Shown here piece by piece: positions 7,010-26,419 of a stretch of DNA of 64,000 bases. A model generated the notes under the pieces. It was not told the origin of the DNA and did not search any database. It saw only the letters and a program-made list of their open reading frames with translations. The stretch spans positions 6,521-70,520 of the forward strand of contig JAJEGO010000014.1 in the NCBI GenBank assembly GCA_022819805.1, in the 5' to 3' direction. Both the position numbers and the translations under genes were made by a program. Within the stretch, counting starts at the first letter, position 1; each line of letters begins with the position of its first letter. Source of the stretch: Candidatus Dadabacteria bacterium (lineage in GTDB: Bacteria; Desulfobacterota_D; UBA1144; Nemesobacterales; Nemesobacteraceae).

Positions 7010-7039
7010 ACTTAAAGTAACCATAATTTTCAGGGGTTG

Positions 7040-7080
7040 CGCTCCGAAGCCTCCCGCTTCGGGGGGCGCCCCTTTTTTTC
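7040..7080 (+). terminator. Rho-independent terminator after the 6230-7009 gene
   Basis: GC-rich hairpin ctccgaagc-ctcc-gcttcgggg followed by the run cccctttttttc. Confidence 0.6.
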
Positions 7081-7090
7081 TCTTGCCGAC

Positions 7091-7705: not shown

Positions 7706-7907
7706 AGAAATAACGTCAAGCACTTTGCCGAGACACGACAATTAACCTGGTTGGGAGTTATATATAATCCTAACCAAGAGAGAATAGATGGAGACGTTTA
7801 AATCTCTTAATCGTCAAAGTCTCTTATAATTTTTTCGGGATACCATTTTACGCCGTCAAACGTTATCAGGTAATATCCACTATCCGAAAAGCCCGAGGGG
7901 TGTTCAA

Positions 7908-8144
7908 TTGAGCATGGACTCGAAAAAACTAGCAAAGACAGGAACCGAAAACCTCAATGTCGCAATCTTGAGTGTCCTGCGTACAAACGGCTGGCTTACA
8001 GTTAGAGAAATTTCAGAAAAACTCGCTATACCTTATAGGTGTGGTTGTAGAAACTTGATTAGACCCTTTTTGTGGGAATTACGCAGAGAGGGTCGGGTCG
8101 TCAAAGAGAAAAAACACGGTTGGAAATGGGGTTTGCCTGTCTGA
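7908..8144 (+). CDS. Small hypothetical protein, possibly winged-helix DNA-binding, in the AT-rich islet
   Basis: 78-aa ORF in a region of about 33-40% GC. The stretch ILSVLRTNGWLTVREISEKL resembles a recognition helix. Weak call. Confidence 0.3.
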   Translation: MSMDSKKLAKTGTENLNVAILSVLRTNGWLTVREISEKLAIPYRCGCRNLIRPFLWELRREGRVVKEKKHGWKWGLPV

Positions 8145-8217
8145 GTCTCGGGGATGTCCAGTCAAGAATGTAATTGAACCGATTGATGCAACGCCGGAAC
8201 AGATATAGAAGGTTGCT

Positions 8218-8493
8218 ATGAAAAGAGCAATTTTCTTGTTGTTAGTTTGTTGCATCCTGTTTTTACCAGTTGATGTAAAAGCCGGTTGCAACGATACAGA
8301 ACTCGCTCTATACAGAGAGTGCATGATTGTATCTGAACTGGCAGAAAATATACTAACTTCGCCAGGGTCGTATGAATGGGAAGAGATGGAACGGATAGCA
8401 GACTATATGGAAATATGTGCCAAATTTTTTAGTAGCGACATAGGCAGAATCAACGATTGTAAGAGGCGAGCGTTAGGGAAGCCAAACCCATAA
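8218..8493 (+). CDS. Small secreted Cys-containing hypothetical protein in the AT-rich islet
   Basis: Signal-peptide-like N-terminus MKRAIFLLLVCCILFLPVDVKA. Four further Cys. About 30% GC. Confidence 0.3.
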   Translation: MKRAIFLLLVCCILFLPVDVKAGCNDTELALYRECMIVSELAENILTSPGSYEWEEMERIADYMEICAKFFSSDIGRINDCKRRALGKPNP

Positions 8494-8672
8494 CTACTTA
8501 TTGCGGATTAAAGAACATTGGGAAAAGCAAGAATTTTCCAATGGAAAGCTCAAATATTGCCGAAGAGAGGGTGAATTTATCAATAAAACGGTGGCGGATT
8601 TGTCAATAGGAATCGGGCACATTTGATATTAGCGTGACAACCAGAATTCAAATACGGCCTGTGGAGAGTGAG

Positions 8673-8746
8673 AGCGGGCGACGGGATTCGAACCCGCGAC
8701 CCTTGGCTTGGGAAGCCAATGCTCTGGCCAGCTGAGCTACACCCGC
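8673..8746 (-). tRNA. tRNA-Gly (anticodon CCC)
   Basis: Manual fold of the reverse complement GCGGGTG-TA-GCTC-AGCTGGCCA-GAGC-A-TTGGC-TTCCCAA-GCCAA-GGGTC-GCGGG-TTCGAAT-CCCGT-CGCCCGC-T. The 7-bp acceptor stem includes one G-U pair. The T-loop is TTCGAAT. The anticodon loop TTCCCAA gives anticodon CCC. CCA is not encoded. Confidence 0.8.
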
Positions 8747-8838
8747 AATACCCAGAGGACTTTATACGGATATCGCCTACAAATCAAACCCGTGATTGGG
8801 GATGGTTCTCCAGATAACCGACCCGCGTTTCAGATATA

Positions 8839-9771
8839 ATGTTCTCCGTGGATAAGACTCGCCGGACAGGACACCTGCTCACAGAAAAAGTAAACCCGAG
8901 AACGGTCAATATTGACGAACTTTCGTGTTCGGAAATCATCGATCTTATAGGTGGTGAGGACCGGGAGGCTTTTGAGGCCGTCTCCAGAGAAAAGGGCTCC
9001 ATTTCACGGGCGGCGGAAATGGTTTTCCGCTCACTTGAATGCGGCGGCAGAATTTTTCTCGTCGGGGCGGGAACAAGCGGGCGCCTCGGGGTGATGGAAG
9101 CCGCCGAATGTCCGCCGACTTTCGGGACGGATCCCGAAAGGGTGCAGGCGGTTATGGCGGGAGGGCGAGACGCGGTATGGAATTCGGTTGAGGGTGCTGA
9201 GGATTCCGCAACGGCTTCGGTGGAGACTCTTCGGGGCAAAAAACTCTCAGAGGACGACGTGACTTTGGGAATCGCGGCAAGCTCCGGGACGCCGTTTGTG
9301 ATATCGGCCCTTGAATACGCGCGGACAGTCGGCTGCGCTACCATACTTATAAGCTGCAGCGAGCCGGAGAACGCCCCGGCCGACCTGGTCATACCCCTTC
9401 TCGTCGGTCCGGAAGTGATAGTGGGCTCAACGAGGCTCAAGGCCGCGACCGCGACCAAGATGGCACTTAACATGATTACGACGGCCGCCATGGTGCTCCT
9501 CGGAAAAACTTACGGGAACCTGATGGTTGACCTTAAACCCACGTCCTCAAAACTTGCCGACAGGGCAAGGAGAATCATAATGGAGATATGCGGTGTGGGG
9601 GAAGAAGAAGCCGCCTCGCTTTTCAGGGAAGCAGGCGGGAACCTCAAAGTTGCCGTGGTAATGAAACTCGGGGGTCTCTCGCCTGAAGAATCTGTCAGTT
9701 TGCTAAGAGAGAACGGCGAATCCTTAAAGAAAACCCTTGCAACCATATCCCCCAGAATGGGAAATCCGTAA
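8839..9771 (+). CDS. murQ: N-acetylmuramic acid 6-phosphate etherase MurQ (SIS domain)
   Basis: The N-terminus LTEKVNPRTVNIDEL and the SIS motif IFLVGAGTSGRLG are typical of MurQ. About 300 aa. Confidence 0.85.
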   Translation: MFSVDKTRRTGHLLTEKVNPRTVNIDELSCSEIIDLIGGEDREAFEAVSREKGSISRAAEMVFRSLECGGRIFLVGAGTSGRLGVMEAAECPPTFGTDPERVQAVMAGGRDAVWNSVEGAEDSATASVETLRGKKLSEDDVTLGIAASSGTPFVISALEYARTVGCATILISCSEPENAPADLVIPLLVGPEVIVGSTRLKAATATKMALNMITTAAMVLLGKTYGNLMVDLKPTSSKLADRARRIIMEICGVGEEEAASLFREAGGNLKVAVVMKLGGLSPEESVSLLRENGESLKKTLATISPRMGNP

Positions 9772-9887
9772 TCTGGACGCTTGTCAAACCGCAAATCGAC
9801 CGCTAAGACGATTCCCCATGGTTTCCGTACAATCATTCATTCCAAGGTTGCTGGCTCCAACTATCCAGGCTGCGTTAGAGGATACAG

Positions 9888-9990
9888 AAGTGCAGATCGA
9901 GGACTTTATCTGAGTTTGTGCTTTTTCGGTTGCGGCGTTGAAAGAGACCTCGGTCAGCGGGTCTCGGGAGCGACCCTTTCCCTTTGCTAC
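9888..9990 (+). pseudogene. Chimeric remnant: a roughly 25-37 bp anmK-like fragment fused to a roughly 65-bp nagZ-like fragment
   Basis: The core 9891-9912 (gatacagaagtgcagatcgaggactttatctg) matches anmK 10155-10186 (gataccgaagtgcggatcgaagactttatctg); including flanking bases the match extends to about 9885-9912. 9923-9990 (ttttcggttgcggcgttgaaagagacctcggtcagcgggtctcgggagcgaccctttccctttgc) matches nagZ 11445-11510. Both matches have only a few mismatches. Confidence 0.5.
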
Positions 9991-10036
9991 GGAATGTTCC
10001 TGCCCAAGACCAGTTTCATCAGGTAGCTTTCTCTCC

Positions 10037-11224
10037 GTGAACTGGCTTCGTCCGATAATTTCAAAAAAGGAAAAACTCATCATCGGACTCATTTCCGGGA
10101 CTTCAATGGACGGTATTGACGCGGCGCTGGTGAGAATTCGCGGCTCGGGAGAAGATACCGAAGTGCGGATCGAAGACTTTATCTGCCGGGAGTATTCCGA
10201 TGCCGCGAGGAGGCTTCTTCTCTCAATCGGTTCCCTAAACGCCGGTTCCCTTTCCGACCTCAATTTCCTCCTCGGCCGGGAGTTTGCCGCCGCAGTCTTT
10301 GATCTTCTCAGCAAAGCATCCCTGAAAACGACCGACGTGGATCTTGTGGGCACCCACGGCCAGACGGTTTTTCACAATCCGCCCTCTCTCGGGGGGGATA
10401 TTTCTTCAACTCTTCAGCTCGGCGAAGCTGACGTTATATGCGAGGCAACGGGAATTACCACCGTGGGAGATTTCAGGACGAGGGACATGGCGGCTGGCGG
10501 AGAAGGTGCTCCCCTTATGCCCTACGTGGATTACCTGCTGTTCTCTGGAACCGGGAAGAACATAATCGCCCAGAACATAGGGGGTATTTCCAACTGCACT
10601 TTGGTTGCGGGGAAACCCAGGGAGCTTCTGGCGTTCGATACGGGCCCCGGCAATTCCCTGATCGATTCGGTGGCGCGCCTTGCATCGGGAGGCGAGAAGA
10701 GCTTTGACGAGGACGGTGCGATGGCAAAGCAAGGTTCGGTTAAAGAAGATCTCCTGCGCAGCCTCATGAAAAATCCTTACTTCGACATAGAGCCCCCTAA
10801 ATCGACCGGCAAGGAGCTTTTTGGAGAGGAAATGGTCACAAGGCTTTTTCTGCTTGTAGAAAAAAAGGACATCTCCCTGCCCGATCTTCTGCGCACGCTT
10901 GTCGAATTTACCGTCTGTTCCATAGTCTCGGCCTACGAAAGATTCATCTATCCTCGCGCGGATGTGGAGGAAGTGATACTGAGCGGAGGTGGTGCCCGAA
11001 ACCCTCTCATGGTTTCCAGGCTTCGCGAAAAACTCGCTCCGACGCGGCTTCGGCTTTCGGATGAATACGGTATTCCCGCGGATGCCAAGGAAGCCGTGGG
11101 ATTCGCGGTACTCGCGAATGAGACCGTGTGCGGGAACCGGGCCAACGTGCCGGAAGTCACGGGAGCCCGAGACTCCACGGTTCTGGGGAAAATCTCAATC
11201 GGGAAGAATATAGTAAATGTATGA
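10037..11224 (+). CDS. anmK: Anhydro-N-acetylmuramic acid kinase AnmK
   Basis: GLISGTSMDGIDAALV N-terminal signature. The start is probably GTG at 10037 (VNWLRPIISKKEKLIIG), because no ATG lies in frame upstream of the signature. About 395 aa. Confidence 0.85.
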   Translation: MNWLRPIISKKEKLIIGLISGTSMDGIDAALVRIRGSGEDTEVRIEDFICREYSDAARRLLLSIGSLNAGSLSDLNFLLGREFAAAVFDLLSKASLKTTDVDLVGTHGQTVFHNPPSLGGDISSTLQLGEADVICEATGITTVGDFRTRDMAAGGEGAPLMPYVDYLLFSGTGKNIIAQNIGGISNCTLVAGKPRELLAFDTGPGNSLIDSVARLASGGEKSFDEDGAMAKQGSVKEDLLRSLMKNPYFDIEPPKSTGKELFGEEMVTRLFLLVEKKDISLPDLLRTLVEFTVCSIVSAYERFIYPRADVEEVILSGGGARNPLMVSRLREKLAPTRLRLSDEYGIPADAKEAVGFAVLANETVCGNRANVPEVTGARDSTVLGKISIGKNIVNV

Positions 11225-11285
11225 GAATCCGGCAGTTTTCTCGTCAAAAGATCTCACCGCGCCCCGTCGCTCGGCGCAGTTTATT

Positions 11286-12734
11286 ATGCCGAGGATCGAT
11301 TTTCGAGATCCCGATTCCGTCAGGAGGGCGGAACTCCTCGTGCGGGATTTCTGCGTCTGCGGTTTCATAGTATTCAACGGGGAAGTTGAGCAGGTGAGGG
11401 AAACCACCGGTAGGCTTGCGTCCTTGTCCGAGTTCCCGCTTCTCTTCGGTTGCGACGTTGAAAGGGGCCTCGGTCAGCGGGTCTCGGGAGCGACCCTTTT
11501 TCCCTTCGCGATGGCCCAGGGGGCGATGGACGACGAGGAGGCCCTGAGACGCCAGGCCGTTATAACCGCCCGGGAGATGAAGTACTGCGGCCTTAACCTT
11601 GGTTTTGCCCCCGTTCTTGACATAAATACCGAGCCCAAAAACCCGATAATAAACGTGAGGGCGTTCTCAGATGACCCCGCGGTCGTTTCAAGACTGGGAA
11701 GCGTCTTCGCGGAGACCCTGCAGAAAGAGGGAGTGCTTGCCTGCGCAAAGCATTTTCCCGGCCACGGCGCCGCCCTGGAGGATTCCCATGCCCGGCTCCC
11801 AAGCGTCGAAAGATCCTTAGAGCGTCTTATGGAATCGGATATTGCGCCTTTTAGAGAAGCGATTGCGAAAAGGCTTCACTGCGTGATGCCGGCTCATGTC
11901 TGTTTTCCCTCTCTTGACCCGCTCGGTGCCCCGGCCACCCTGTCAAAGCCGGTCCTGCACGGCCTCCTGCGGGAAAAACTGGGATTCAGCGGCTTGGTTG
12001 TTTCTGACTCCTTCAGGATGGACGCCTTGGGGGGAGAGGAGCGGGAAGAGGAAAACATTCTGGCCGCCATTGCAAGCGGGGTTGATATTGTTTTGGATCC
12101 CAGAGATCCCGAGGGCTTCCTTAAAAGATGCGCGGAGGAGGATTTTTTTCAGGATCCCGCCCGGGCAGAGTCTCTTTCCAGGATATTCTACGCGAAAAAG
12201 CTTTTCGCCTCGGGCGGCGAAGAAGAGAGCACGCCCGATTTTGAGAGAAACGCCGGAGAGGCAAGGGAAATTACCCGCCGCTCGGTCTGCGTTTTGCGAG
12301 GAGAAGCTCTTCGCGGCAGGAAAGTCTCAGTTTTGCATTTCGGTACGGAAGACACAGAAGAGCTTCTCGGCGGACTTTGCGGGGGGCTCTCCGAGGGGGG
12401 AGTGGCGGTGGAGAAGAGTTTTTCCTGGTCCGAGGCACCGGAGCTTCGCGACGATCGCCCGCTTGTATGCGTTTTATCAACCGCTCCGGCGGGCTGGACG
12501 GAAAACAGCGTTGTTCCCCGGGCTGTAATGGATCGCATAAAGGATTTCTCCTCTTTCTCGGGTGAAAAAGTCCTGATTACCTTCGGTTCCCCGTATCCTG
12601 CCGCCGGGTTTCCTTTTTTCGATACTGTTGTCTCGCTTTTTGATTCCTCGCCCACGGCGGGCCGGGCGGCTGCGGAGGTTCTCACGGGAGAGAGGTCTTC
12701 TGCGGCAAGGCTTCCGGTGAAAATAACGCTATGA
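11286..12734 (+). CDS. nagZ: Beta-N-acetylhexosaminidase NagZ (GH3) with a C-terminal extension
   Basis: GH3 motifs KHFPGHG, VMPAHVCFP and GLVVSDSFRMDALGG. The alternative in-frame start at 11217 overlaps the anmK stop. Confidence 0.85.
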   Translation: MPRIDFRDPDSVRRAELLVRDFCVCGFIVFNGEVEQVRETTGRLASLSEFPLLFGCDVERGLGQRVSGATLFPFAMAQGAMDDEEALRRQAVITAREMKYCGLNLGFAPVLDINTEPKNPIINVRAFSDDPAVVSRLGSVFAETLQKEGVLACAKHFPGHGAALEDSHARLPSVERSLERLMESDIAPFREAIAKRLHCVMPAHVCFPSLDPLGAPATLSKPVLHGLLREKLGFSGLVVSDSFRMDALGGEEREEENILAAIASGVDIVLDPRDPEGFLKRCAEEDFFQDPARAESLSRIFYAKKLFASGGEEESTPDFERNAGEAREITRRSVCVLRGEALRGRKVSVLHFGTEDTEELLGGLCGGLSEGGVAVEKSFSWSEAPELRDDRPLVCVLSTAPAGWTENSVVPRAVMDRIKDFSSFSGEKVLITFGSPYPAAGFPFFDTVVSLFDSSPTAGRAAAEVLTGERSSAARLPVKITL

Positions 12735-14473
12735 AGCTCTACGCCATAGACTGGATGCTTGTTGGTCTCTATCTGGTTTTTTCCCTGGGCGTGGGCTTTT
12801 ATTTTTCAAGAAGGGCGTCGGGGAGTCTTTCTGACTATTTCGTTTCGGGACGCGGGCTTCCCTGGTGGCTTCTTGGAACCTCCATGGTCGCCACCACTTT
12901 CGCCGCCGACACTCCCCTTGCCATAACGGGGTGGATAAGAACCGAGGGAATATGGAAGAACTGGTTCTGGTGGAACTACATCTTCAGCCACGCGCTCGTG
13001 ATAGTGGTTTTCTCAAGGCTCTGGAGAAGGGCGGAGGTGATAACCGACAACGAGCTCATAGAGCTTCGCTACGGGGGCCGCCCCGCGGCGTTTCTCCGCG
13101 GCTTCAAGGCGTTTTATTTCTCGACGATTTTCAATTTCATAGTCATGGGGTGGGTGATCACCGCCATGACCAAGGTGTTTGAGGTCTTTTTCGGAGTCGG
13201 GCAGATATACGCCGTTTCGCTCTGCGTCGGAATCGTGCTCGTCTACACGGTTTTCTCCGGGCTCTGGGGAGTCGTGATAACGGATTTCGTGCAGTACGCA
13301 ATAGCGCTGGGCGGCACGATCATACTCGCCGTTGTGGTCATAAATTCTGACGCGGTCGGAGGGTACAGTCAGTTCGTAAGCAAAATAGCGGAACTTCCCC
13401 CGGAGCAGACTTCCATGTTCATCACGCAGCCCACAGGCGGCGAAGAGTTTTTCTCTTCTGATTTTTTCACCTTCCTTGTCTTCATGACCGTCGTCTGGTG
13501 GTCTTCCCACAACGCGGACGGGGGAGGCTATTTCATACAGCGCCTGTGCTCCGCGAAGAACGAGAGACACGCGCTTGCGGGCACCGCCTGGTTCGCGGTT
13601 AACCATTACGTGCTCCGCCTCTGGCCCTGGGTCCTGGTCGCCTTGGCCTCGGTCGTGATCTTTCCCGAAGCGGCGGGGGTGACGGGCGGGGACGACGAGT
13701 CGATGTACCTTGTGATGATAAGGGATTTTCTCCCTCCGGGCCTTCGGGGCCTTCTGCTGGTTTCCTTTCTCGCGGCGTTTATGTCCACGGTCTCCACCCA
13801 CCTTAACTGGGGCGCGTCGTACCTCGTGAACGACCTCTACAGAAGATTCGTGCGCCAAAGCGCCCCGCAGGGTCATTACGTGCGGGTCTCAAGGATCGCG
13901 ACCGTCGTGCTTGCCGTCATCGCGGGCGTGGTGGCGCTTCAGATAAAGAACATAGGGGACGCATGGATATTTCTCTGGGCAATGAGTTCGGGAATCGGCC
14001 TCGTGCTGATACTGAGGTGGTTCTGGTGGAGGATAAACGCCTGGAGCGAGATAGTGGCGCTTGCCTCGTCGCTTGCGACCATACTGGTTTTGATTCTCTA
14101 CACAGAAGCGAAGGGAGTTCCGCTGGAACTGCGCCACCAGATACTTGTTGTTCCCGTCTCGATAACCTGCTGGGTTGTGGCTACTTTCGTTACCTCTCCC
14201 GAGTCCTGGGAAAAACTCTCGGCATTCTACTCGAGGGTAAGGCCCCCGGGCCTCTGGTCGCCTGTCCGGAAGAGGGCGGGGGTTGCGCCGCAGCGGGGAG
14301 TTTTTTCTTCGGTTTTTCTTAACTGGTCGCTTGTGGTGTCTTTCCTCCTCTGTTTCATGATAGGCGCGGGCAAGCTCGTTCTTGGAGACGGCGAAAGCGC
14401 GCTCTGGCTTCTTTCGGTCTCGGCGGTTGCGTTTCTCCTCATCCTGCGCCGTCGCCACAGTTTTTTCCGCTAA
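12731..14473 (+). CDS. Sodium:solute symporter (SSS/SSF) family permease
   Basis: 580 aa with about 13 TM helices. Start overlaps the nagZ stop (ATGA coupling). Confidence 0.8.
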   Translation: MKLYAIDWMLVGLYLVFSLGVGFYFSRRASGSLSDYFVSGRGLPWWLLGTSMVATTFAADTPLAITGWIRTEGIWKNWFWWNYIFSHALVIVVFSRLWRRAEVITDNELIELRYGGRPAAFLRGFKAFYFSTIFNFIVMGWVITAMTKVFEVFFGVGQIYAVSLCVGIVLVYTVFSGLWGVVITDFVQYAIALGGTIILAVVVINSDAVGGYSQFVSKIAELPPEQTSMFITQPTGGEEFFSSDFFTFLVFMTVVWWSSHNADGGGYFIQRLCSAKNERHALAGTAWFAVNHYVLRLWPWVLVALASVVIFPEAAGVTGGDDESMYLVMIRDFLPPGLRGLLLVSFLAAFMSTVSTHLNWGASYLVNDLYRRFVRQSAPQGHYVRVSRIATVVLAVIAGVVALQIKNIGDAWIFLWAMSSGIGLVLILRWFWWRINAWSEIVALASSLATILVLILYTEAKGVPLELRHQILVVPVSITCWVVATFVTSPESWEKLSAFYSRVRPPGLWSPVRKRAGVAPQRGVFSSVFLNWSLVVSFLLCFMIGAGKLVLGDGESALWLLSVSAVAFLLILRRRHSFFR

Positions 14474-15258: not shown

Positions 15259-15287
15259 TTGACATTACCCCCTCATTAAACTACAAT
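15259..15287 (+). promoter_or_regulatory. Near-consensus sigma70-type promoter
   Basis: TTGACA at 15259-15264, 17-nt spacer, TACAAT at 15282-15287. It sits in an AT-rich stretch about 170 nt upstream of the giant autotransporter ORF. Confidence 0.5.
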
Positions 15288-15459
15288 ATGTTGTGTATGG
15301 AGGGGCGATTCAACCGGAGTTTCCCCTTAACGGATTAAATCGGAAGGGTTCTTTTCGTCTCAGGCATGCGTGTGTGTGCCGCGAGACCTAAATTATTGAA
15401 GAAAAGTCGGGTCGTCTTTTTTCGGATCCCCCGCATTCTTCATATAAAGACCGGCTAAC

Positions 15460-18400
15460 ATGGTGGAACATAAGCGGCTTGTCTCTCGGGTAGAGTGCCA
15501 GCGAAAACCCCTCTTGTCCCCGCATCCAGGCAAGGAAAGGGCCAAGCCAGTCCCGAACCGGGCGGATTTTGGGTTACTTGAAACCTTACTGACGCTCTTT
15601 TGCCTAAAGGCCCTGCGTTCCTCATCTTTTATTAGAAAAACAGCAATCCTGAAAAGCAGGATCTGCCTCCTGCTGGCGGTGCTTTTGCCGCTAGCGGTTC
15701 TTTCCGTAACCGCACACGCTGCCAACGGGGATCTTCGATTGTGCGATACCACGGTCACGAACAGCTGTACGGTTACGACTGACATAGGCAGGCTCGAAGT
15801 TGAGTATAACGGGATGTGGAAGGGGGTGTGCGATGACTATTTCACGAGTCACGAGGCAAGAGTCGCGTGCGGGCAATTAAATTACCCCAATTCACGATAC
15901 GCTAAGACTCTGTTGAGGCTGGACGGACCGACGAGAGCGCATCGTCATAACGGCGAATTCTGGCTTGATGATCTGCTCTGTGGCCAAGGTGATAATACTG
16001 TGGACAACAAGCTGATGGATTGTGCTAGGGCTGGTTCTGGTGCAGGTAATGAAATTGAACCCGGAGAGTCTGGTTATTGGGGGGAGCATAACTGCAAAAG
16101 CAATGAATATGCGGGGGTTGTATGCGTTATCACCGCTCCGGCTAAGCCTACGAACCTGGAAGCGGAAGCTAAGGGGCAGAGCATGATAGTGCTTAATTGG
16201 CGTGCTCCCAACTCCTATGTGGAAGGCTACAAAATCGAGGTCTCAGAGAATGGTGGCAACGACTGGGATGATCTTGAGTCCGACACTGGCAATGCGGACA
16301 CGACATATACCCATAGCGGCCTCCCTCCCAGCGCCACGCGACACTACCAGGTTTCGGCTATTAACTCAGAGGGCACAAGCGATCCTTCAAACATAGCAAG
16401 CGCCACGACAGAAGGCGTACCTCCTCCTTCGGATCAACCTGGAACGGTGGCCCTGTCTTTTTCGCAGCTCGAGATCGGGACGGCGTTAACTGCGACTTTA
16501 ACTGATCCTGACGGTTCTATAGCGAATGTCGAGTGGACATGGTACAGGTCAGCTGACAAAAGCAACTGGAATCCGATCTCCGGCGCCACGAGCAGCGGTT
16601 CTGCGACCGCGACCTACACGCCGGTTGCCGACGGCGATCCGAATGTTGAAGATGACGAGGATAAATACCTGCGGGCGGTGGCCTCTTATGACGATGGCCA
16701 CGGTCCCAATAAAAGCGCGGAGGCGGAATCCGCCAGCAAGGTTCCTGCAGTAAACTGGGCGCCCTCCTTTGATCCTGATCCGCCACCGAGCACCTTTTCT
16801 GTTGACGAGAACACGGGGACTGGAGTAAACATCGGGACGCCGATCGGGGTTACGGATCCGGAAGGTGAACCGCTCACCTACTCGCTTGACGATGGGGACG
16901 GCGATTCGTTCGCCATTGATTCCTCCGGGCAGATAAAGACCAAGTCGGCGCTTGACTACGAAGTCAAAAGTTCTTACACGGTCGAAGTTAAAGTCACGGA
17001 CGGAACCACGGAGATTACGACCACCGTGACCATTAACGTAACCAATGTTGAGGAAGATGGGACCGTGACCCTGTCTAGTTATTCTCCGAATGTGGGAATA
17101 GAGCTGACCGCTGAATTGGAGGATCCTGACGACGGTGTAACGGGTATCACATGGCAGTGGCAGCGCAAGTCATCCGGCGGGACTTTCACGAATATCCCCG
17201 GCGCCACGAGCAGCGGTTCTGCGACCGCAACCTACACGCCGTCCACAGGAGATCTGAATCATCTTCTGCGGGCAAAGGCATCCTACACGGACGGGCACGG
17301 TTCCAACACCGACATGGCGTATGCGGATTCAAACGAAGCGGTAACGGACACATGCCCTCCAAACCACCAAAACGAGGCGCCCGAGTTCAAAATCTCACCA
17401 CCCACGTTTTCTGTGGCTGAGAACACGAGGTCCGGAGTAAATGTCGGGACGCCGGTTACGGCTGAGGATGGAGACGCCGGTCAGCAAATCAGGCTCACCT
17501 ACTCGCTTGACGATGGGGACGGCGATTCGTTTTCCATTGAGAATGACAATTCTCCCGGGCAGATAAAGACCAAGTCGGCGCTTGACTACGATACGCAAGA
17601 TTCTTATACGGTCACGGTTTCCGTAACGGATCCGTGCGGCGAGGAAGATACCATCGACGTAACAATCAACGTTACCGAGCCCGCACCTCCGTCTTCAAAC
17701 ACGAGGGCACCCAACTCCGAGGTGACGAAGTCCGCCCCGGCTCCAACGGCAAAGGTTCCGCAGGCTCCCGCGAATTTAACTGCGGGGCGCGGTGACGGCG
17801 AGGTAACGCTTAGCTGGAGGGTCCCGAATGACGGCGGAAGCGTTATTAAGTACTACGAATACATGATTGATGATGGCCCGTGGATCTCGACCAAGGGAAA
17901 ATCCACTACCCACACTGTCGCCGGGCTTACCAACGGAGAGACCTATAAATTCAAGGTGCACGCGGTGAACGTCATCGGTCCCGGTCCCGGGTCAAGACCG
18001 GTGAAAGCCACGCCTGCCACCGTGCCCGGCCCCCCGCGCAATCTGACGGTGGCTCCGGGCGATCAGCGCGCGACGCTTATGTGGGAGCGGCCTGCGGATA
18101 ACGGCGGTCTTCCGATCACCAGTTACGAGTACGTCCAGAAGGAGGGAAGCGGCTCGTTCGGCAGCTGGATATCCATAGATAACAGCGGTCCCATGGAGAC
18201 AAATGAAACGAGCTATGTGGTCACGGGACTTAAAGACGGCACCGTTTATTCTTTCAAGGTGCGCGCGGTGAACGCCGTGGGTCCGGGAGACGCCTCGGCC
18301 GAGGCCACGGCCGAGACGAGCACTTCCGCCTCCCGGCGCCTGAGGCGCGTCAGCCTCAGCATTCTTCCCGAGTTCGGGAGGACCCTGGCGAGGAATTCCC

Positions 18401-19887
18401 TTGACGCGCTTGCCTGGCGTCTTGACAGCGTCCTTTCGGGATCCTTTGAGCGTACGGGGATGTTCAGGCTTATGGATCAGCACGCGGGGCTCCACGATGT
18501 CATCGGAATTGATATATGGGATGATCCGGAACTGTCGGAAGAGCTCAGCCTCGAGGAGTTGCTCTACGGGTCTTCATTCATAATCGAGGCCGGAGGGATG
18601 CCTAGGAAACCAAAGCAATATCCAACAAAACAGCGGCCTAAGGAAGCTCCCAAGAAGCATGCCGGGGAACATTCGAAAGAATTACCGGAAGAATTACGGA
18701 GGGAATATCCTCAGGATGAGGATATGTGGATTGACGAGGGCGGAAAACCGAATCTCATCGAGAGGCGGGGCGATATGGCGTTTTGGGGCAAGGCGGACTA
18801 CAGCGCCCTCTCGGTCGGCAGAAGCGGCGAAAACCTGAGCTGGGATGGCGGCATAACAAGCGGTTATCTCGGGGTCGACAGACGGTTAACCGAGAATGTG
18901 CTGACGGGAATTTCCGTCGCTTTGACGAAGGGAGATTTCGATTACACGGACTCCACCCCGGGGGAGGGAGGAAGCGGAGATTACCATGTGAAGATGCTCA
19001 GCGTGTCTCCGTACATCGCGTGGCTTATGTCCGAGGATGCTTACCTCTGGGGCGCAATCGGCTATGGACGCGGGGAAATAGACATAGACGACGAAGAAGT
19101 CCAGAGCGTCGCTTCAGGCGACCTCAGCTACAAGTCGGTGGCCGCGGGAGGAAGTGGCAGAGTGTTTGACTTGGGAGACACTACCTTCTCGCTTAAAGGT
19201 GAAGCGTTTAAGGTATGGATGGACGTGGAGGGCGAAGATTACCTGATTGATGACTCATCCGTGGGTGTACACCAGCTGCGCCTCGGCATGGAGGGAAGCT
19301 ACGAGTACCGCTTCGCGTCCGGAGCCTGGTTCAATCCCCTTGTGGAGGTCGCTCTTCGCCACGACGGGGGAGACGGGGAGACGGGCACCGGGGTTGAAAT
19401 CGGAGGCGGTTTCCTCTTCGAAGACCCGGATATGGGTCTTAGCATTGCGGGCAGGGGGCGCTGGCTGGCGGTGCACAGTTCCGATGAGTTCAGTCAATGG
19501 GGAGTTGGAGGAACCGTGATCTTCGATACGGGAGCGGACAAAGAAGGCGCGCTGTTCAGCGTGGCTCCCGGATGGGGAGACACTTCAAGCGGGATTGAGA
19601 ATCTCTGGGAGCGCGGAGCGGAAGGGGTGTCGTCAGAATACGGCAGAGACAACAGTCTGCATCTTGACGCGGAGTTCGGATACGGACTCCCGGCTCTCGG
19701 CGGGGACGGGATTCTCACTCCCTACAGCGGACTCAGGATGAGAGCAGACGGGTGGCGACAGTACCGCCTCGGCAGTCGTCTGGATCTCGGGCGTTCTACG
19801 AGTCTGAGCCTTGAAACCGAGCGAAGGCAGAGCGATGCGAAGAAGCCTGAGCACGGAATCATGCTGAGAGGAAAGCTTAATTTCTGA
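15460..19887 (+). CDS. Giant surface protein, predicted type V autotransporter adhesin with SRCR-like, FN3 (x3), cadherin (x2) and unclassified repeat (x2) passenger modules
   Basis: 1475-aa ORF. A signal-peptide-like segment (ILKSRICLLLAVLLPLAVLSVTAHA) follows a roughly 60-aa N-terminal extension. The SRCR-like domain spans residues about 91-223 (EVEYNGMWKGVCDD, ARVACGQL, FWLDDLLC, WGEHNC, AGVVCV). Two cadherin repeats carry F-S-V-D/A-E-N, LTYSLDDGDGDSF, QIKTKSALDYE/D and TVTINVT motifs. FN3 modules have W..P..GG..I..Y.Y and Y.F.V.AVN motifs. A helical linker precedes a roughly 370-aa C-terminal beta-domain ending ...GIMLRGKLNF, i.e. a terminal Phe. Confidence 0.8.
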   Translation: MVEHKRLVSRVECQRKPLLSPHPGKERAKPVPNRADFGLLETLLTLFCLKALRSSSFIRKTAILKSRICLLLAVLLPLAVLSVTAHAANGDLRLCDTTVTNSCTVTTDIGRLEVEYNGMWKGVCDDYFTSHEARVACGQLNYPNSRYAKTLLRLDGPTRAHRHNGEFWLDDLLCGQGDNTVDNKLMDCARAGSGAGNEIEPGESGYWGEHNCKSNEYAGVVCVITAPAKPTNLEAEAKGQSMIVLNWRAPNSYVEGYKIEVSENGGNDWDDLESDTGNADTTYTHSGLPPSATRHYQVSAINSEGTSDPSNIASATTEGVPPPSDQPGTVALSFSQLEIGTALTATLTDPDGSIANVEWTWYRSADKSNWNPISGATSSGSATATYTPVADGDPNVEDDEDKYLRAVASYDDGHGPNKSAEAESASKVPAVNWAPSFDPDPPPSTFSVDENTGTGVNIGTPIGVTDPEGEPLTYSLDDGDGDSFAIDSSGQIKTKSALDYEVKSSYTVEVKVTDGTTEITTTVTINVTNVEEDGTVTLSSYSPNVGIELTAELEDPDDGVTGITWQWQRKSSGGTFTNIPGATSSGSATATYTPSTGDLNHLLRAKASYTDGHGSNTDMAYADSNEAVTDTCPPNHQNEAPEFKISPPTFSVAENTRSGVNVGTPVTAEDGDAGQQIRLTYSLDDGDGDSFSIENDNSPGQIKTKSALDYDTQDSYTVTVSVTDPCGEEDTIDVTINVTEPAPPSSNTRAPNSEVTKSAPAPTAKVPQAPANLTAGRGDGEVTLSWRVPNDGGSVIKYYEYMIDDGPWISTKGKSTTHTVAGLTNGETYKFKVHAVNVIGPGPGSRPVKATPATVPGPPRNLTVAPGDQRATLMWERPADNGGLPITSYEYVQKEGSGSFGSWISIDNSGPMETNETSYVVTGLKDGTVYSFKVRAVNAVGPGDASAEATAETSTSASRRLRRVSLSILPEFGRTLARNSLDALAWRLDSVLSGSFERTGMFRLMDQHAGLHDVIGIDIWDDPELSEELSLEELLYGSSFIIEAGGMPRKPKQYPTKQRPKEAPKKHAGEHSKELPEELRREYPQDEDMWIDEGGKPNLIERRGDMAFWGKADYSALSVGRSGENLSWDGGITSGYLGVDRRLTENVLTGISVALTKGDFDYTDSTPGEGGSGDYHVKMLSVSPYIAWLMSEDAYLWGAIGYGRGEIDIDDEEVQSVASGDLSYKSVAAGGSGRVFDLGDTTFSLKGEAFKVWMDVEGEDYLIDDSSVGVHQLRLGMEGSYEYRFASGAWFNPLVEVALRHDGGDGETGTGVEIGGGFLFEDPDMGLSIAGRGRWLAVHSSDEFSQWGVGGTVIFDTGADKEGALFSVAPGWGDTSSGIENLWERGAEGVSSEYGRDNSLHLDAEFGYGLPALGGDGILTPYSGLRMRADGWRQYRLGSRLDLGRSTSLSLETERRQSDAKKPEHGIMLRGKLNF

Positions 19888-19902: not shown

Positions 19903-19919
19903 CCGAAAAAGGTTTTCGG
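19903..19919. terminator. Short inverted repeat between convergent genes, a possible bidirectional terminator hairpin
   Basis: ccgaaaa-agg-ttttcgg forms a perfect 7-bp stem. Confidence 0.35.
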
Positions 19920-19944
19920 GCAAGCGTCCGCTCTTTTGCGGCGG

Positions 19945-21792
19945 CTAAAGCCAGTCGTCCTCAAACGTGTCGTTCGGGCGCTGGTGAAAAGCTCCCGTGT
20001 CCAAGCTGTTTTTAAACCCGCGGAACTTAAGCAGGCCCGAAATCGCGGGTTTTATCTGGCTTCTTTCAACCACCAGGTGAACTCCTCCGTGTTCCTCGTA
20101 GAATTCAGAGGACATTATTTTCGGGTCGACCCCTCGGCCGCCGCTTGTGAGTTTCACGACGCGGTCTCCCGCAAAAGCTATGGTCGCTTTTTTCTCTGCT
20201 ATCAGGAAGTCTCCCTGAACTGCGTAGCTCGCGAGAGCCCCTCCCGTTGTCGGGTGGCCGAGTATGGAGATGTTCGGAAGCCCGTGCTCCTTGAGCCTCA
20301 TTATCGCGGATATGGTCTTCGCCATCTGGTAGAGCGCCACGGTTCCTTCCTGCATCCGCGCGCCTCCGCTTACCGTCACGGTTACCAAGGGAAGCCTGTT
20401 CTCTATGGCGTAGCTTACGACTCTGTTCATTTTCTCGCCGAAGACTGAACTCATTGACCCTCCCATGAACCGGAAATCGCAAGTAGCCACCGCAACGGGT
20501 ATGCCGAACATGGTTCCGTAACCGGTTACCAGGGAATCTTTCGAGTCGGTTTTCCCGGCAAGCTTCTGCCTGGAAGACGAATAGTTAAAGAACTTGTAGA
20601 CGGAATCCACGTCTTCAAGAGAGAGCGCGGGTTCTATTTCGTGGAAGGACGCCTCGTCGAGAAGAAAGTCCAGATAGTCATCGGAACTAAGTGCTTCGGG
20701 GCGGCCGCAGTAAGGACACGAAGAATTGTTCGCGTGCAGTTCCTTTTTCGTAAGCTGTTTCTTGCAGCCGGGGCGTATGATTTTGCCCTGGCCGTCCTTC
20801 TCGTCGTTGCAGAAATGGGGTTCCGCCCCGTAGATGGCTATCTGCATTTCCGAAATGTCGGGATTCTCCTTTTTTCCGCTGAAGTAGTTGGGAAGCCAGG
20901 CCTTTATTTTCTTTGAGATTCCCTCGTAGATTTTCTGCTGCTTTTTTATCCGTCCGCAGCGCTCGATCTTCCTTCGCAGTTCCTCTCGCAGGTGCCTCAC
21001 GTCGTAGCGGTCAAGTTCCTTCGAGGCGGCGGTGAGGGAGGCCTGCAGGTTCTTTAGGGTCGCGGCGATATAATTGTTTTTTCCAAGAGGGGGTTCTTTA
21101 ACTACCTCGTCTATTATTCCGTATTTCTTCATGTGATTTGCCGTGGGCTGCAGCACTTCTAGGGCTTCCGCCACCTTGTCCGCGCTTCTGAAAAGAATGG
21201 CGGAGCAGCCTTCGGCGGTTATCACGGAATATTCGGCTCGGGAGAGCATCAGTCTCTTGTGTCCAAGCTGTATTGCGATCGCGCCCCCGCTCCCCCCGAG
21301 CCCGAGCACGGTGGTTATCGTTTTCGTTCTTAAGGAAATCATTTTCGACTGGCAGTAGGAAATGAGCCAGGACTGGAGTTTTTCGGCTGAGTACTCGTAG
21401 GGGTCTCCGCCGACGGTGTCGATGAAGGTGAAGAGCTTGAGACGGTTCTGCTCGGCGTATTCCATCATGCAAAACGAGAGCCCGTAACCGTCGGCCTTTA
21501 CCATTCCGAAGTTAAGCTTCGTTCTTTCCTTTTCGCTTGAAGGGGTCTGCTGGGCTATTACGGCCACTTCCTCTCCGGTGGCCTTGAACACGGCGGTGCC
21601 TACTATTACGGCCGGGTCGTTAGCGAATTCAACCTTCTTGCCCGAGGGGGCGTGGAGAAAGTTCCTGAACCCCGAGAGCTTGTTCCAGGGAGTAAAGTCG
21701 GTAAAGAGGGTTCCGATCAGGTGCTTTGACTTTATCCTGTCAAAGCTCTTTGCTTCCTCGTGGGCCTGAAGTGTTTTTGCCGTCGATGCCAT
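19945..21792 (-). CDS. Acetyl-CoA carboxylase carboxyltransferase, fused alpha (AccA-like, N-terminal) and beta (AccD-like, C-terminal) subunits
   Basis: The N-terminal half carries AccA motifs (NFGMVKADGYG, FIDTVGGDPY, GLGGSGGAIAIQLGHKRLMLSRAEYSVITAEGCSAIL). The C-terminal half begins with a 4-Cys zinc-ribbon region (FCNDE...GC...SCPYCGRPE). It then carries AccD motifs (FRFMGGSMSSVFGEK, SGGARMQEG, GHPTTGGALASYA, IAFAGDRVV). Confidence 0.8.
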   Translation of the reverse strand: MASTAKTLQAHEEAKSFDRIKSKHLIGTLFTDFTPWNKLSGFRNFLHAPSGKKVEFANDPAVIVGTAVFKATGEEVAVIAQQTPSSEKERTKLNFGMVKADGYGLSFCMMEYAEQNRLKLFTFIDTVGGDPYEYSAEKLQSWLISYCQSKMISLRTKTITTVLGLGGSGGAIAIQLGHKRLMLSRAEYSVITAEGCSAILFRSADKVAEALEVLQPTANHMKKYGIIDEVVKEPPLGKNNYIAATLKNLQASLTAASKELDRYDVRHLREELRRKIERCGRIKKQQKIYEGISKKIKAWLPNYFSGKKENPDISEMQIAIYGAEPHFCNDEKDGQGKIIRPGCKKQLTKKELHANNSSCPYCGRPEALSSDDYLDFLLDEASFHEIEPALSLEDVDSVYKFFNYSSSRQKLAGKTDSKDSLVTGYGTMFGIPVAVATCDFRFMGGSMSSVFGEKMNRVVSYAIENRLPLVTVTVSGGARMQEGTVALYQMAKTISAIMRLKEHGLPNISILGHPTTGGALASYAVQGDFLIAEKKATIAFAGDRVVKLTSGGRGVDPKIMSSEFYEEHGGVHLVVERSQIKPAISGLLKFRGFKNSLDTGAFHQRPNDTFEDDWL

Positions 21793-24457: not shown

Positions 24458-25363
24458 ATGAGATACACAGCGGCAAATGCGAGTTTTTGGCTTGTGGCGA
24501 TACTTTTGATTCTTGGTTCATCGCAGGCTTCGGCCGAGGATAAGTTCTATATCGGGCTTGAGGGGGGATTTTCAAAGTCGGGAGATCTGGGCATTTCCCA
24601 TTCTTTTGTAAATCACCCAACCCGGTGCGATTCGCTTCTTTATCCCTCGGGCGCGACTCCGCCGACTGACGCGGAATGTGTGGCCGATAAAACATCGACC
24701 GTCGCGAATGTGTTTAGCCCCGGCACGGGGTTTGTGGCCGGTGCGACTTTTGGTTATGCGCTCGGCAACGGGCTGCGCTTTGAAGCGGAGTACCTTAACC
24801 GCCGTCAGTCCTCCGAGAGAAGGCTCGTGCGTCTCGGTTCGGCGAGCGATGATCCGCTTGATCAGAAGAGCAGTGAATGGGATGAGAACGATCCTCCCTC
24901 AGAACGCGTGTATGACATCGGTGCACATCATCTCTTCCTGAACGCTTACTATGACTTGCGCAATGACTCGCCTATTACGCCTTATGTCGGAGCCGGTGTA
25001 GGCATGGGGTCGGTGGAAATGCGCTACTCGGCGAGATTCCTGCGCAGGAGCGATCTGGGAACGGAGCCATGGCAGGATGCCGCGGAAGGCACAACCAGCT
25101 CCATTAATCCTGCGCTTAAAAAAATCAGGTTCGGTTTTCAGGTGATAGGCGGAGTTGATTACGCGCTTGGCGACGATTTCTCAGTTGGCGCCAAGGTCCG
25201 CTGGACACGCCTCAGCGGTTTTGACCGCGACGACGTGCCCTGGACCGAAATCCGGGACCACGCACCTGTACGGGCCGACGGGGTTACGCCGCTTACTTCA
25301 GATTTTGAAGTGGATGACATGGATAACTGGACCGTTACGGTAGGGCTCAAGTATTATCTCTGA
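24458..25363 (+). CDS. Outer membrane beta-barrel protein (OmpA-like TM barrel family), paralog 1
   Basis: Signal peptide MRYTAANASFWLVAILLILGSSQASA. Amphipathic beta-strand pattern. Ends GLKYYL. RBS aaggaga. Confidence 0.7.
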   Translation: MRYTAANASFWLVAILLILGSSQASAEDKFYIGLEGGFSKSGDLGISHSFVNHPTRCDSLLYPSGATPPTDAECVADKTSTVANVFSPGTGFVAGATFGYALGNGLRFEAEYLNRRQSSERRLVRLGSASDDPLDQKSSEWDENDPPSERVYDIGAHHLFLNAYYDLRNDSPITPYVGAGVGMGSVEMRYSARFLRRSDLGTEPWQDAAEGTTSSINPALKKIRFGFQVIGGVDYALGDDFSVGAKVRWTRLSGFDRDDVPWTEIRDHAPVRADGVTPLTSDFEVDDMDNWTVTVGLKYYL

Positions 25364-25510
25364 ACGCTCTACTTTCCGACAAGCGTTCCCATGAGTTTCC
25401 AGTCTTCTTCCACTAAGGTTCCACTTGCGGCGGCGCAGTCCTTTTTCGTTTCGGCTGGTATTGTTTGACCGTGAACGGTTCTTGAGTTGAGAGATACAAG
25501 GAGAAAATAC

Positions 25511-26419
25511 ATGAGACATTTTGCTGGCAACGGGTGTTATTGGTTTGTGGCAGTTCTTTTGGCGTCCGCCTTGTCGGTGACGGATTCCGCGGCGGAAGGT
25601 TTCTATATCGGGCTTGAAGGGGGATTTTCAAAGTCGGGAGACTTGAACGTTTCCCAGTCTTTCATTGATCATCCGACCCGGTGCGATTCGTTTCTCTATC
25701 CTTCCGGCACGACTCCGCCGACCGACCCGGAATGCACCACCGATAGAATATCTACCATTGCAAACGTTTTTGTCCCCGGCGCGGGGTTTATGGGTGGCGC
25801 AACTCTTGGATACGCGCTCGGCAACGGGCTGCGTTTTGAGGCGGAGTATCTAAACCGCCGCCAGGGTTCGCAGAGAAAGCTCGTGCGCCTCGGTTCCGGC
25901 GGCGGCGAAACGTTCGATCAAAAGCAGAGCGAATGGGACGAGAACGATCCTCCCTCAGAACACGTGTATGACTTAAGGGCCCATCATTTCTTCCTGAATG
26001 TCTACTACGACCTGCGCAACGACTCGCCCTTTACGCCCTATATCGGAGGAGGCGCGGGTTTGGGTTCGACGGAAATGCGCTACTCGGCCAGATTCCTGCG
26101 CGGGAGCGCCCTGGGTACGGAACCGTGGCAGGTGGCCGTGGCGGGCACGCTCAGCGACATAGACACGGAACTGGGAAAAACCAGGTTCGGTTTTCAGGTG
26201 ATAGGCGGAGTTGATTACGCGCTTGGCGACGATTTCTCAGTTGGCGCCAAGGTCCGCTGGACACGCCTCAGCGGTTTTGACCGCGACGAGGTGTCCTGGA
26301 CGCGGGTCAGAGGCCACGAATCCATACGCGTCGACGGCGTTACGCCGCTTACGGCCGATTTCGAGGTGGATGACACAGACATCTGGACCTTTACGGTCGG
26401 GCTTAAGTATTATCTCTGA
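25511..26419 (+). CDS. Outer membrane beta-barrel protein, paralog 2 (tandem duplicate)
   Basis: About 75-80% identical to paralog 1, with the same Cys pair (RCDS...PPTD.EC) and the same ...GLKYYL terminus. Start at ATG 25511 after aaggagaaaatac. Confidence 0.7.
   Translation: MRHFAGNGCYWFVAVLLASALSVTDSAAEGFYIGLEGGFSKSGDLNVSQSFIDHPTRCDSFLYPSGTTPPTDPECTTDRISTIANVFVPGAGFMGGATLGYALGNGLRFEAEYLNRRQGSQRKLVRLGSGGGETFDQKQSEWDENDPPSEHVYDLRAHHFFLNVYYDLRNDSPFTPYIGGGAGLGSTEMRYSARFLRGSALGTEPWQVAVAGTLSDIDTELGKTRFGFQVIGGVDYALGDDFSVGAKVRWTRLSGFDRDEVSWTRVRGHESIRVDGVTPLTADFEVDDTDIWTFTVGLKYYL

Follow-up and report, generated by a model that had tools for sequence, protein, structure and literature searches.

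How the eukaryote-like proteins of sponge symbionts reach their host, and which of them actually touch it, are questions that remain for the most part unanswered, and it is against this background that the gene described here deserves attention. It lies in a stretch of 64,000 nucleotides (the whole of which is referred to below as the window) from contig JAJEGO010000014.1 of a Candidatus Dadabacteria assembly (GCA_022819805.1), and it encodes a protein of 1475 residues in which a signal peptide, an SRCR domain, a string of FN3, Ig-like and cadherin modules and a C-terminal outer-membrane beta domain follow one another in a single chain. The question is what such a protein might be for, and the answer proposed is that it is probably a type Va autotransporter-like surface adhesin of small-genome, probably sponge-associated Dadabacteria, with a Ca2+-dependent SRCR domain at its tip. 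A protein of this kind would combine its own export and anchoring device, a gene that is syntenic across the symbiont lineage, a near-consensus promoter and an SRCR domain with its ligand residues intact at the tip; as SRCR is the receptor family that sponges have expanded most, this makes it a testable candidate for symbiont attachment or recognition. What is new here is the SRCR head on an autotransporter adhesin, together with the atypical anchor; the sequences themselves were already public.

One uninterrupted open reading frame (ORF), which starts with ATG and ends in ...LRGKLNF, occupies nucleotides 15460..19887 (+) of the window, with exactly the coordinates, strand and end given in a first-pass annotation made by a model from the letters and translations alone. 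No other ORF in the window is as long (the runners-up are of 871 and 810 residues), and the earlier description of this one as the only very large gene there holds good. All of the modules named in that annotation (SRCR, three fn3, two Cadherin and Autotransporter) score above the Pfam gathering cut-off (GA), in the same order as had been read by eye. What had to be given up is the view that this combination was new to bacteria, given that at least 26 database clusters share it. An identical 1475-aa product is already present in a public sequence collection, and the roughly 26 further clusters, at 56-73% identity, all have SRCR, cadherin and fn3 (plus autotransporter). In a scan of one genome per species, full-length matches were found at nine loci, in records labelled either “MAG: Thermodesulfobacteriota bacterium” (MAG, metagenome-assembled genome) or “Candidatus Dadabacteria”; seven of these nine genome records are chromosome-level, at 1.5-1.9 Mb, and two are contig-level. 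The gene is single-copy in the nine genomes, and its flanks are arranged as Fer4-[gene]-accAD, as they are also in several metagenome contigs: at every locus examined there is a small 4Fe-4S ferredoxin gene on one side and a convergent fused accA/accD gene on the other, a synteny kept in at least 12 independent assemblies. The G+C content of the gene, 0.56-0.59, falls within the range for the window (0.50-0.59). The gene is a vertically inherited core gene of the Dadabacteria lineage.

The SRCR domain, placed directly after the signal peptide by the first-pass annotation, is found there by Pfam with an E-value of 4.9e-12 and 46.5 bits (GA 26.1), covering model positions 8-99 of 100. Its matches among solved structures (phmmer against the PDB) include the SRCR domains of CD163, neurotrypsin (7e-9), DMBT1 (2e-7), MARCO (3.4e-7), SR-A and Mac-2BP. 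All 27 family members share six invariant cysteines (C124, C137, C174, C188, C212 and C222) in a group-A-like pattern; these align with C2, C3, C5, C6, C7 and C8 of the CD163 domains, the cysteines of the group-B C1-C4 pair being absent. There are also variable loop insertions, and 17 of the 27 members have an additional N-terminal pair (C95 and C103). More telling for function are the residues of the cation and ligand site: D125, D126, D170, N211 and E216 are again invariant in 27/27, while position 171 is either Asp or Asn, so that five of the six cation/ligand residues of animal SRCRs are unchanged in the family and the sixth varies between Asp and Asn. The correspondence with SALSA/DMBT1 was established by way of four motifs common to both (CDD, LDD, HNC and E-x-AGV), using an alignment to CD163. 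The counterparts in DMBT1 SRCR8 we take to be D1019, D1020 and E1086 for site 2, and D1020, D1058, D1059 and N1081 for site 3, a numbering that is in part tentative. In SALSA/DMBT1, either of the substitutions D1019A or D1020A abolishes Ca2+-dependent binding to hydroxyapatite, to heparin and to a bacterial ligand, and MARCO, CD6 and CD163 bind through the same SRCR surface (PMC7043408). Since the cation-site residues are conserved, it would appear that the bacterial SRCR retains the canonical ligand-binding apparatus.

What is apparently kept, therefore, is the dual cation site that animal SRCRs use for Ca2+-dependent binding of polyanions. Sea water contains Ca2+ at about 10 mM, and the site should be Ca2+-loaded there. 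With the dual cation site intact and sea water so rich in Ca2+, the likely ligands would be polyanionic, the obvious candidates being glycans, sulfated or acidic, from the matrix of the sponge or the surface of its cells. The most likely task would be to attach the bacterium, in a Ca2+-dependent way, to acidic or sulfated material of that matrix or of those cell surfaces, or else to other cells. Attachment to a host or to other cells was also what the first-pass annotation proposed, and to judge from the sequence it is still the most plausible function. In comparison with the animal SRCR proteins (DMBT1/SALSA, MARCO, CD163, neurotrypsin and Mac-2BP), the domain family, the six-cysteine group-A pattern and the site 2 and site 3 residues are shared; the differences are that here a single bacterial domain is fused to an autotransporter, that most members have the extra cysteine pair, and that identity is no higher than 32-38%.

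Between head and anchor lies the stalk, for which the whole-protein Pfam search gave fn3 at 5.5e-34 (three stretches) and Cadherin at 2.6e-26 (two stretches), with a Pro/Ser/Thr/Ala-rich linker visible in the translation at aa 740-768, directly after cadherin repeat 2. The first-pass annotation had noted two copies of an unclassified module of about 100 residues; both are there, and they are now modelled as Ig-like beta-sandwiches. The AlphaFold2 model, based on a 42-sequence alignment, is a seven-strand sandwich with a pLDDT (predicted local distance difference test) of 93.6; Foldseek against the PDB gave only generic matches to Ig, FN3 and macroglobulin domains (E >= 2e-3, TM-scores 0.5-0.66), and there was no match to the local copy of Pfam, the precomputed tables showing a faint one to PF28399 Ig_CLSTN. 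A hidden Markov model (HMM) of the module, run on 234 retrieved proteins, found 383 copies in 90 of them; the copies alternate with cadherin repeats, one pair taking up about 200 aa, and other bacterial giant proteins contain as many as 12-13 of these Ig-cadherin units each. On this sequence evidence, the Ig-like module is the standard partner of bacterial cadherin repeats. Three of the giant proteins (P0024, P0030 and P0084) share the ~200-aa unit with the window protein, with 40-47% identity there, but have 5-13 units and no SRCR, and their precomputed domain lists contain no autotransporter domain. The window protein itself has two Ig-cadherin units and its orthologues have from one to four, implying that the length of the stalk varies.

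Conservation within the family climbs steadily from tip to anchor: identity is 57% in the SRCR domain, 61-68% in the Ig and cadherin modules, 76-79% in the second and third FN3 domains, 83% in the helix that follows them, 80% in the insert after that and 90% in the barrel. A variable tip, a stalk of variable length and a constant anchor are what one would expect of an adhesin. Taken with the strong and conserved promoter (see below), this gradient, the variable stalk and the constant anchor are consistent with a displayed adhesin having the SRCR domain as its ligand-binding head. In most orthologues the passenger has no cysteine beyond the SRCR domain; the passengers of autotransporters are usually without cysteine.

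The anchor was modelled with AlphaFold2 over aa 955-1475, using 61 homologues at 28-80% identity, and the model has a mean pLDDT of 76 and a pTM (predicted TM-score) of 0.71. The C-terminal region has an autotransporter-like fold. Autotransporter PF03797 is found in the whole protein with an E-value of 5.3e-12 and 46.5 bits (GA 26), and in the domain alone (aa 1108-1310) with 2.1e-13 and 51.1 bits, bearing out the suggestion that a beta-rich C-terminal domain of about 370 residues closes the protein. The terminal Phe on which that suggestion was partly based belongs to a beta-signal-like end (...GIMLRGKLNF, with alternating hydrophobics) of the kind by which the BAM complex recognises its substrates, and ...NF is found in 25 of 27 members, the other two being truncated. 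In structural comparison the model is closest to EspP, Hbp and NalP, with FhaC next at 14.2; in Foldseek the best match was BrkA, at 1.1e-7, with TM-scores that were modest (0.55-0.68). Almost all of NalP superposes on the model, which would favour a core of canonical size with some 110 extra residues. The long helix preceding the barrel is, from the model, a candidate for the linker or pore helix of the autotransporter unit, and the insert that separates it from the barrel carries near-invariant GMFRLMDQHAGLH and LYGSSFIIEA motifs. When highly conserved peptides were picked for locus finding, GMFRLMDQ was among the top two, and a Lys/Pro/Glu-rich stretch of the insert has no counterpart in the consensus of the wider beta-domain alignment. 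Two further searches added little: an alignment profile (A3) run against the PDB was swamped by the columns of Calx-beta passengers and so was uninformative as to the barrel, and NCBIfam on the whole protein gave nothing meaningful.

The class assignment follows the order of parts: the translation and the Pfam matches give signal peptide, passenger and C-terminal translocator, in that order, in one polypeptide, and neither the short C-terminal anchor of type Vc (YadA-type) nor the N-terminal barrel of type Ve is present. Classical type Va proteins (NalP, EspP, Hbp, AIDA-I, BrkA, EstA) have the same order of signal peptide, passenger, helix and beta domain, and the PF03797 match and aromatic C-terminal residue are also common to both. 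They differ in the passenger, which is a beta-helix there and here a string of beta-sandwiches with a disulfide-rich SRCR head; beyond this, the window protein adds a 62-aa extension that is not of the extended signal peptide region (ESPR) type, about 110 residues between helix and barrel, and a beta region of about 370 aa. The anchor has relatives of its own in some 100 metagenomic proteins (P0137-P0234) at 30-45% identity, whose passengers are arrays of Calx-beta, He_PIG, cadherin-like, LRR or FN3 domains and of which one comes from a Rhodospirillales MAG; by sequence, this looks like a distinct autotransporter subfamily for passengers of beads-on-a-string type. The window also contains a second autotransporter gene, at 48235-50124 (-), encoding a GDSL esterase of 629 aa that is EstA-like and matches PF03797 over its full length (1.5e-35), so that the organism carries another gene of autotransporter type. 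Comparing the anchor beta-domain family with this EstA-like protein using hhalign gave an insignificant result (probability 0.86%), and the two translocators of the window are for this reason not close paralogues.

By analogy with known autotransporters, the sequence of events would be that, after Sec export, the C-terminal beta domain inserts in the outer membrane and the passenger is shown on the outside as a stalk made up of FN3, Ig-like, cadherin, Ig-like, cadherin, Pro/Thr-rich linker, FN3 and FN3 (counted in this analysis as eight beta-sandwich domains). Since it is the C-terminal end of the passenger that is joined to the barrel, the SRCR domain at the other end would be the part farthest from the cell. 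Surface proteins of the intimin/invasin group (type Ve) consist of a membrane barrel, an Ig-like rod and, at the distal end, a small head that binds the ligand and contains a disulfide. The design logic is shared, but the topology is opposite, with the barrel here C-terminal and the head N-terminal, and the head of intimin and invasin is C-type-lectin-like whereas that of the window protein is SRCR. The window protein shares its ecological setting and its domain repertoire with the eukaryote-like proteins (ankyrin, LRR, fn3, cadherin) found in sponge symbionts; secretion systems can be recognised in few of the sponge-associated lineages (PMC8163846), whereas the window protein has an export device built in.

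All this said, a number of observations weigh against this interpretation, most of them concerning the anchor. The PF03797 match covers only positions 1-209 of the 255 in the model, and the beta region, at about 370 aa, is some 110 aa longer than the canonical one. DSSP assigns 18 beta segments between aa 1106 and 1473, mostly with pLDDT > 85, and the 12 strands of the classical barrel, which has a helix running through its pore, were not confirmed. Between the helix and the first strand there are about 110 residues of low confidence, a gap that canonical autotransporters are not known to have. The anchor has no sequence similarity to solved autotransporters, a phmmer search of the barrel against the PDB giving only chance matches to antibody Fab chains. 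A different kind of difficulty comes from the head itself, for which the group-A pattern predicts three long-range disulfides (C124-C212, C137-C222 and C174-C188): type Va secretion, as studied with Hbp and Pet, reportedly handles disulfide-bonded folded elements poorly. In addition, the sponge association of most of the orthologues rests on names and not on metadata, and expression, surface exposure and binding are inferred from sequence and not from experiment, the function of the protein (including the identity of its ligand and any role in host association) being assigned by analogy throughout.

How a domain with three long-range disulfides passes through an autotransporter is a puzzle of secretion in its own right, and either the SRCR domain would be oxidised only after crossing, or the translocator subfamily would be atypical. 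The latter idea forms part of a more ambitious and distinctly doubtful proposal, in which the SRCR head would be a functional counterpart of the sponges' own SRCR receptors, serving for docking or masking, and the anchor would in addition belong to a divergent subfamily with an enlarged or modified barrel, adapted to passengers that are beads on a string and even disulfide-bonded. If the protein did turn out to be a counterpart of the sponge receptors, it would provide a concrete molecule for how sponges tell symbionts from food bacteria.

The first part of this proposal is close to the rival explanation that survives best, namely host mimicry, in which the SRCR head imitates the SRCR receptors of the sponge, so that the bacterium is read as “self” or competes for the ligands of the host's pattern-recognition receptors, and thereby escapes being phagocytosed by a filter-feeding sponge. 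Such a role would be compatible with adhesion. Sponges hold hundreds of SRCR genes (296 in Amphimedon; PMC10855680), and responses of these genes to both microbes and symbionts are on record (PMC6208332, PMC11229196); modulation of host recognition is, moreover, the role generally ascribed to eukaryote-like proteins in sponge symbionts (PMC8163846), and the bacterial domain has both a canonical ligand site and, judging by domain order, the most exposed position. Nevertheless we regard mimicry as rather unlikely, as identity to animal SRCRs (that of the sponge Oscarella included) does not exceed the 32-38% mentioned above and there is no close host copy, and as SRCR domains also occur in putative lipoproteins of seemingly free-living bacteria, so that the domain need not target a host.

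These last points depend on how the domain is distributed outside the family, for which a profile search with the family alignment was made against 1.84 billion representative proteins (E <= 1e-3), giving matches in 13,253 of them. As the list was ranked by summed score, it shows multi-SRCR proteins only, and single-SRCR bacterial proteins are invisible in it. Against the family profile, members of the family score 150-165 bits and the best single domains outside it about 75 bits, and the range of identity just quoted is the best reached with any non-family SRCR. All the named matches that were looked up are animal: DMBT1-like proteins of fish, limpet, gecko and soft coral, a neurotrypsin-like protein of amphioxus and the Oscarella protein. 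Two others are different. P0276 (IMG metagenome, 941 aa) has seven tandem SRCR domains and P0366 (Logan, 695 aa) has five; both have a lipoprotein-type signal peptide and cysteine-rich N-terminal repeats, and the cysteine-rich region of P0366 matches the myxobacterial NF041328 at 7.2e-16. Their per-domain scores, 75 and 73 bits respectively, are at the level of the best animal matches, and they share a W(R/K)GVCDD.F...A.VAC..L motif with the window protein, from which they differ in having no autotransporter, FN3 or cadherin domains. They are likely to be bacterial, and specifically myxobacterial, multi-SRCR lipoproteins.

The statement in the first-pass annotation that SRCR is almost exclusively metazoan therefore needs to be qualified: the matches are mostly animal, as it implied, but these two putative bacterial lipoproteins carry the domain as well. 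On the sequences collected, SRCR is overwhelmingly, not exclusively, an animal domain, and it is one that is not confined to animals. The accompanying suggestion that the modules had been acquired horizontally fared worse, as the best identities and the unremarkable G+C give no demonstration of transfer and certainly not of a recent one. Recent transfer from the host was considered and rejected, since identity to any animal SRCR is at most 38% and there is no composition anomaly. The Dadabacteria SRCR would seem to have no close donor. A word-indexed search using the SRCR domain alone was uninformative, giving only three fragments, all of the same family. In the literature no described bacterial SRCR protein or SRCR-bearing autotransporter was found, and the text of the sponge-symbiont survey (PMC8163846) does not mention SRCR.

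A second rival looks to the stalk instead of the tip, and supposes that homophilic, Ca2+-dependent contacts between cadherin and Ig-like modules lead to aggregation or biofilm formation in the manner of Ag43 or AIDA-type proteins, the SRCR domain being an accessory. Ca2+ motifs are partly preserved in the two cadherin repeats (xEN, LDYE/LDYD and DxG are all present), the Ig-cadherin unit is the very one that is so extensively repeated in the giant proteins, and cadherin and fn3 genes of sponge MAGs have been suggested to serve in attachment to the host or between bacteria (PMC8163846). The junctions tell a different story, however: the DxNDN motif survives only in degenerate form (NVEEDG) behind repeat 1 and is missing behind repeat 2, and what comes next to a cadherin repeat is in each case an Ig-like module or a linker, never another cadherin repeat. 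An invariant distal SRCR head with an intact ligand site also points to the tip and not to the stalk, and self-association as the main role is accordingly judged improbable.

It is still less probable that the passenger is cleaved and freed as a soluble SRCR-bearing factor, even though EspP, Hbp and NalP, the closest structural matches to the C-terminal domain, shed their passengers, and the long, conserved and poorly modelled segment between helix and barrel could hold a processing site. Pfam finds no protease domain in the protein, no intra-barrel cleavage motif was recognised (without a search aimed at one), and a stalk of Ig, FN3 and cadherin modules makes most sense as a spacer for a head that stays anchored. 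Lastly, the idea that the gene is an artefact, either an assembly chimera (the possibility raised by the first-pass annotation) or eukaryotic host DNA joined to a bacterial contig, can be dismissed, because the same neighbourhood is found at every locus examined, with collinear full-length orthologues in all nine genomes (seven chromosome-level, two contig-level) and in metagenome assemblies made independently, and because the frame is uninterrupted, the promoter conserved and bacterial, and the G+C unremarkable.

The coordinates of the features referred to above, and of those at either end of the gene, are collected in Table 1.

Table 1 Features of the SRCR-autotransporter gene and its immediate surroundings, in window coordinates.
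Feature	Residues	Coordinates (strand)	Basis or remarks
Peptidoglycan/anhydro-muropeptide recycling-like cluster		8839-14473 (+)	SIS (MurQ-like), AnmK, GH3 (NagZ-like), sodium:solute symporter
Sigma-70-type promoter		15259..15287 (+)	TTGACA (15259-15264), 17-nt spacer, TACAAT (15282-15287); 11/12 matches in scan
Conserved 5' leader, ~170 nt		15288..15459 (+)	DNA alignment of orthologous loci
N-terminal extension (MVEHKRLVSRV...PNRA...LFCL...)	1-62	15460..15645 (+)	Translation and orthologue alignment
Sec-type signal peptide, KSRICLLLAVLLPLAVLSVTAHA	~63-87	15646..15720 (+)	Recognised by eye in translation; cleavage between AHA and AN
SRCR domain	88-222 (Pfam match 109-222)	15721..16125 (+)	PF00530
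FN3 domain 1	229-314	16144..16401 (+)	Pfam fn3, E 1.5e-12, 48 bits
Ig-like beta-sandwich module, copy 1	327-431	16438..16752 (+)	Family HMM
Cadherin repeat 1	445-528	16792..17043 (+)	Pfam, E 1.8e-12, 47.9 bits, model 2-93/93
Ig-like beta-sandwich module, copy 2	533-631	17056..17352 (+)	AlphaFold2 model
Cadherin repeat 2	649-739	17404..17676 (+)	Pfam, E 4.7e-16, 59.4 bits, model 2-93/93
FN3 domain 2	769-850	17764..18009 (+)	Pfam fn3, E 4.8e-12
FN3 domain 3	858-951	18031..18312 (+)	Pfam fn3, E 1.3e-13
Long alpha-helix, 37 residues	956-992	18325..18435 (+)	AlphaFold2, fragment residues 2-38, pLDDT ~90
Conserved helix-barrel insert	993-1105	18436..18774 (+)	pLDDT 31-60; no Pfam match
C-terminal outer-membrane beta domain, autotransporter type	1106-1475	18775..19884 (+)	Ends ...GIMLRGKLNF
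Weak terminator-like hairpin, CGGGCAAGCGTCCG then CTCTTTTGCG		19917..19940 (+)	30 nt past stop; pattern scan only
Apparent fused accA/accD carboxyltransferase		19945-21792 (-)	615-aa ORF, ACCA + Carboxyl_trans; convergent with the SRCR gene, 57-nt gap

The strong promoter with which the gene had been credited is indeed there: it is near-consensus, and the block containing it, GAATATCTTGACA...ACTACAATAT, is nearly invariant in the DNA alignment across eight orthologous Dadabacteria loci. The leader that follows has invariant alignment blocks of its own, including TTAACGGATTAAATCGGAAGG and AAGACCGGCTAAYATGGTGGAACAT, and no match in Rfam. It may be structured, on weak evidence: RNAalifold gave 49 pairs, eight of them with compensatory changes, and a covariation term of only -0.14 kcal/mol. 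There is no obvious Shine-Dalgarno sequence before the ATG at 15460, and it may be that the leader and the 62-codon extension together (15288-15645) constitute a regulatory RNA overlapping the start of the gene.

This extension is the respect in which the protein departs from its earlier description as starting with a signal peptide; the signal peptide is present, with A85 and A87 kept in at least 90% of the family, but the conserved extension of about 62 aa precedes it. Whether the extension is translated is a question on which the evidence divides. The frame is open in eight of nine orthologues, each of the three indels has a length divisible by 3, and pairwise identity averages 70%; against this, the substitutions by codon position (0.241/0.240/0.269) show no third-position excess, which weighs against translation, as does the lack of an evident Shine-Dalgarno sequence. 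Start codons 3' of the extension were considered and rejected, the only canonical in-frame ones being a GTG at codon 74 and a TTG at codon 76, either of which removes the charged n-region of the signal peptide. Because of the open frame, the multiple-of-3 indels and the lack of any canonical downstream start that would leave a charged n-region, the extension is probably translated. It matched neither Pfam nor the ESPR motif. At the other end of the gene, the terminator-like hairpin sits inside the 57-nt gap preceding the convergent accA/accD fusion gene; the pattern scan found 7 sites in the region as compared with 4.6 +/- 2.2 in shuffled sequence, making the evidence for it weak.

One orthologue, at 6001-12446 of OZ253668.1 (L003), is anomalous, in that the match spans 6.4 kb in place of the 4.4 kb of the window gene. 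The reading frame of this orthologue is closed some 60 codons before the GVCDDYFT motif (its ORF opening at nt 7917), and no MVEHK start motif was found; extra repeat units plus a frameshift or a long-read assembly error could be the cause.

As regards habitat, a contig carrying the identical protein is tagged KELL22-1_SAMN22237340, and another orthologue comes from a “Langseth” MAG. From its naming scheme, the former tag would refer to the metagenomes of Caribbean sponges (Ircinia) published by Kelly et al. 2022 (PMC9531527, PRJNA768976). Sponges regularly host Dadabacteria as symbionts, and sponge MAGs show an enrichment in cadherin and fn3 genes (PMC8163846); Dadabacteria are among the sponge MAGs recovered, and Calx-beta was also flagged (PMC8163846, PMC9531527). 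One clade of Dadabacteria includes sponge-derived genomes, whereas in the pelagic clades genome size is about 1.2 Mb (PMC8115339).

The recycling-like cluster, which lies immediately 5' of the SRCR gene and is conserved at the orthologous loci, fits the peptidoglycan-degrading lifestyle proposed for Dadabacteria (PMC8115339). The only RNA gene in the window, according to both Rfam and ARAGORN, is a tRNA-Gly (CCC) at 8672-8746 (-). The window also has two tandem paralogous genes for OMP_b-brl/Opacity-like outer-membrane proteins, at 24458-25363 and 25487-26419 (+); in a related genome (L001) the orthologous region has just one, and the pair looks like a lineage-specific duplication.

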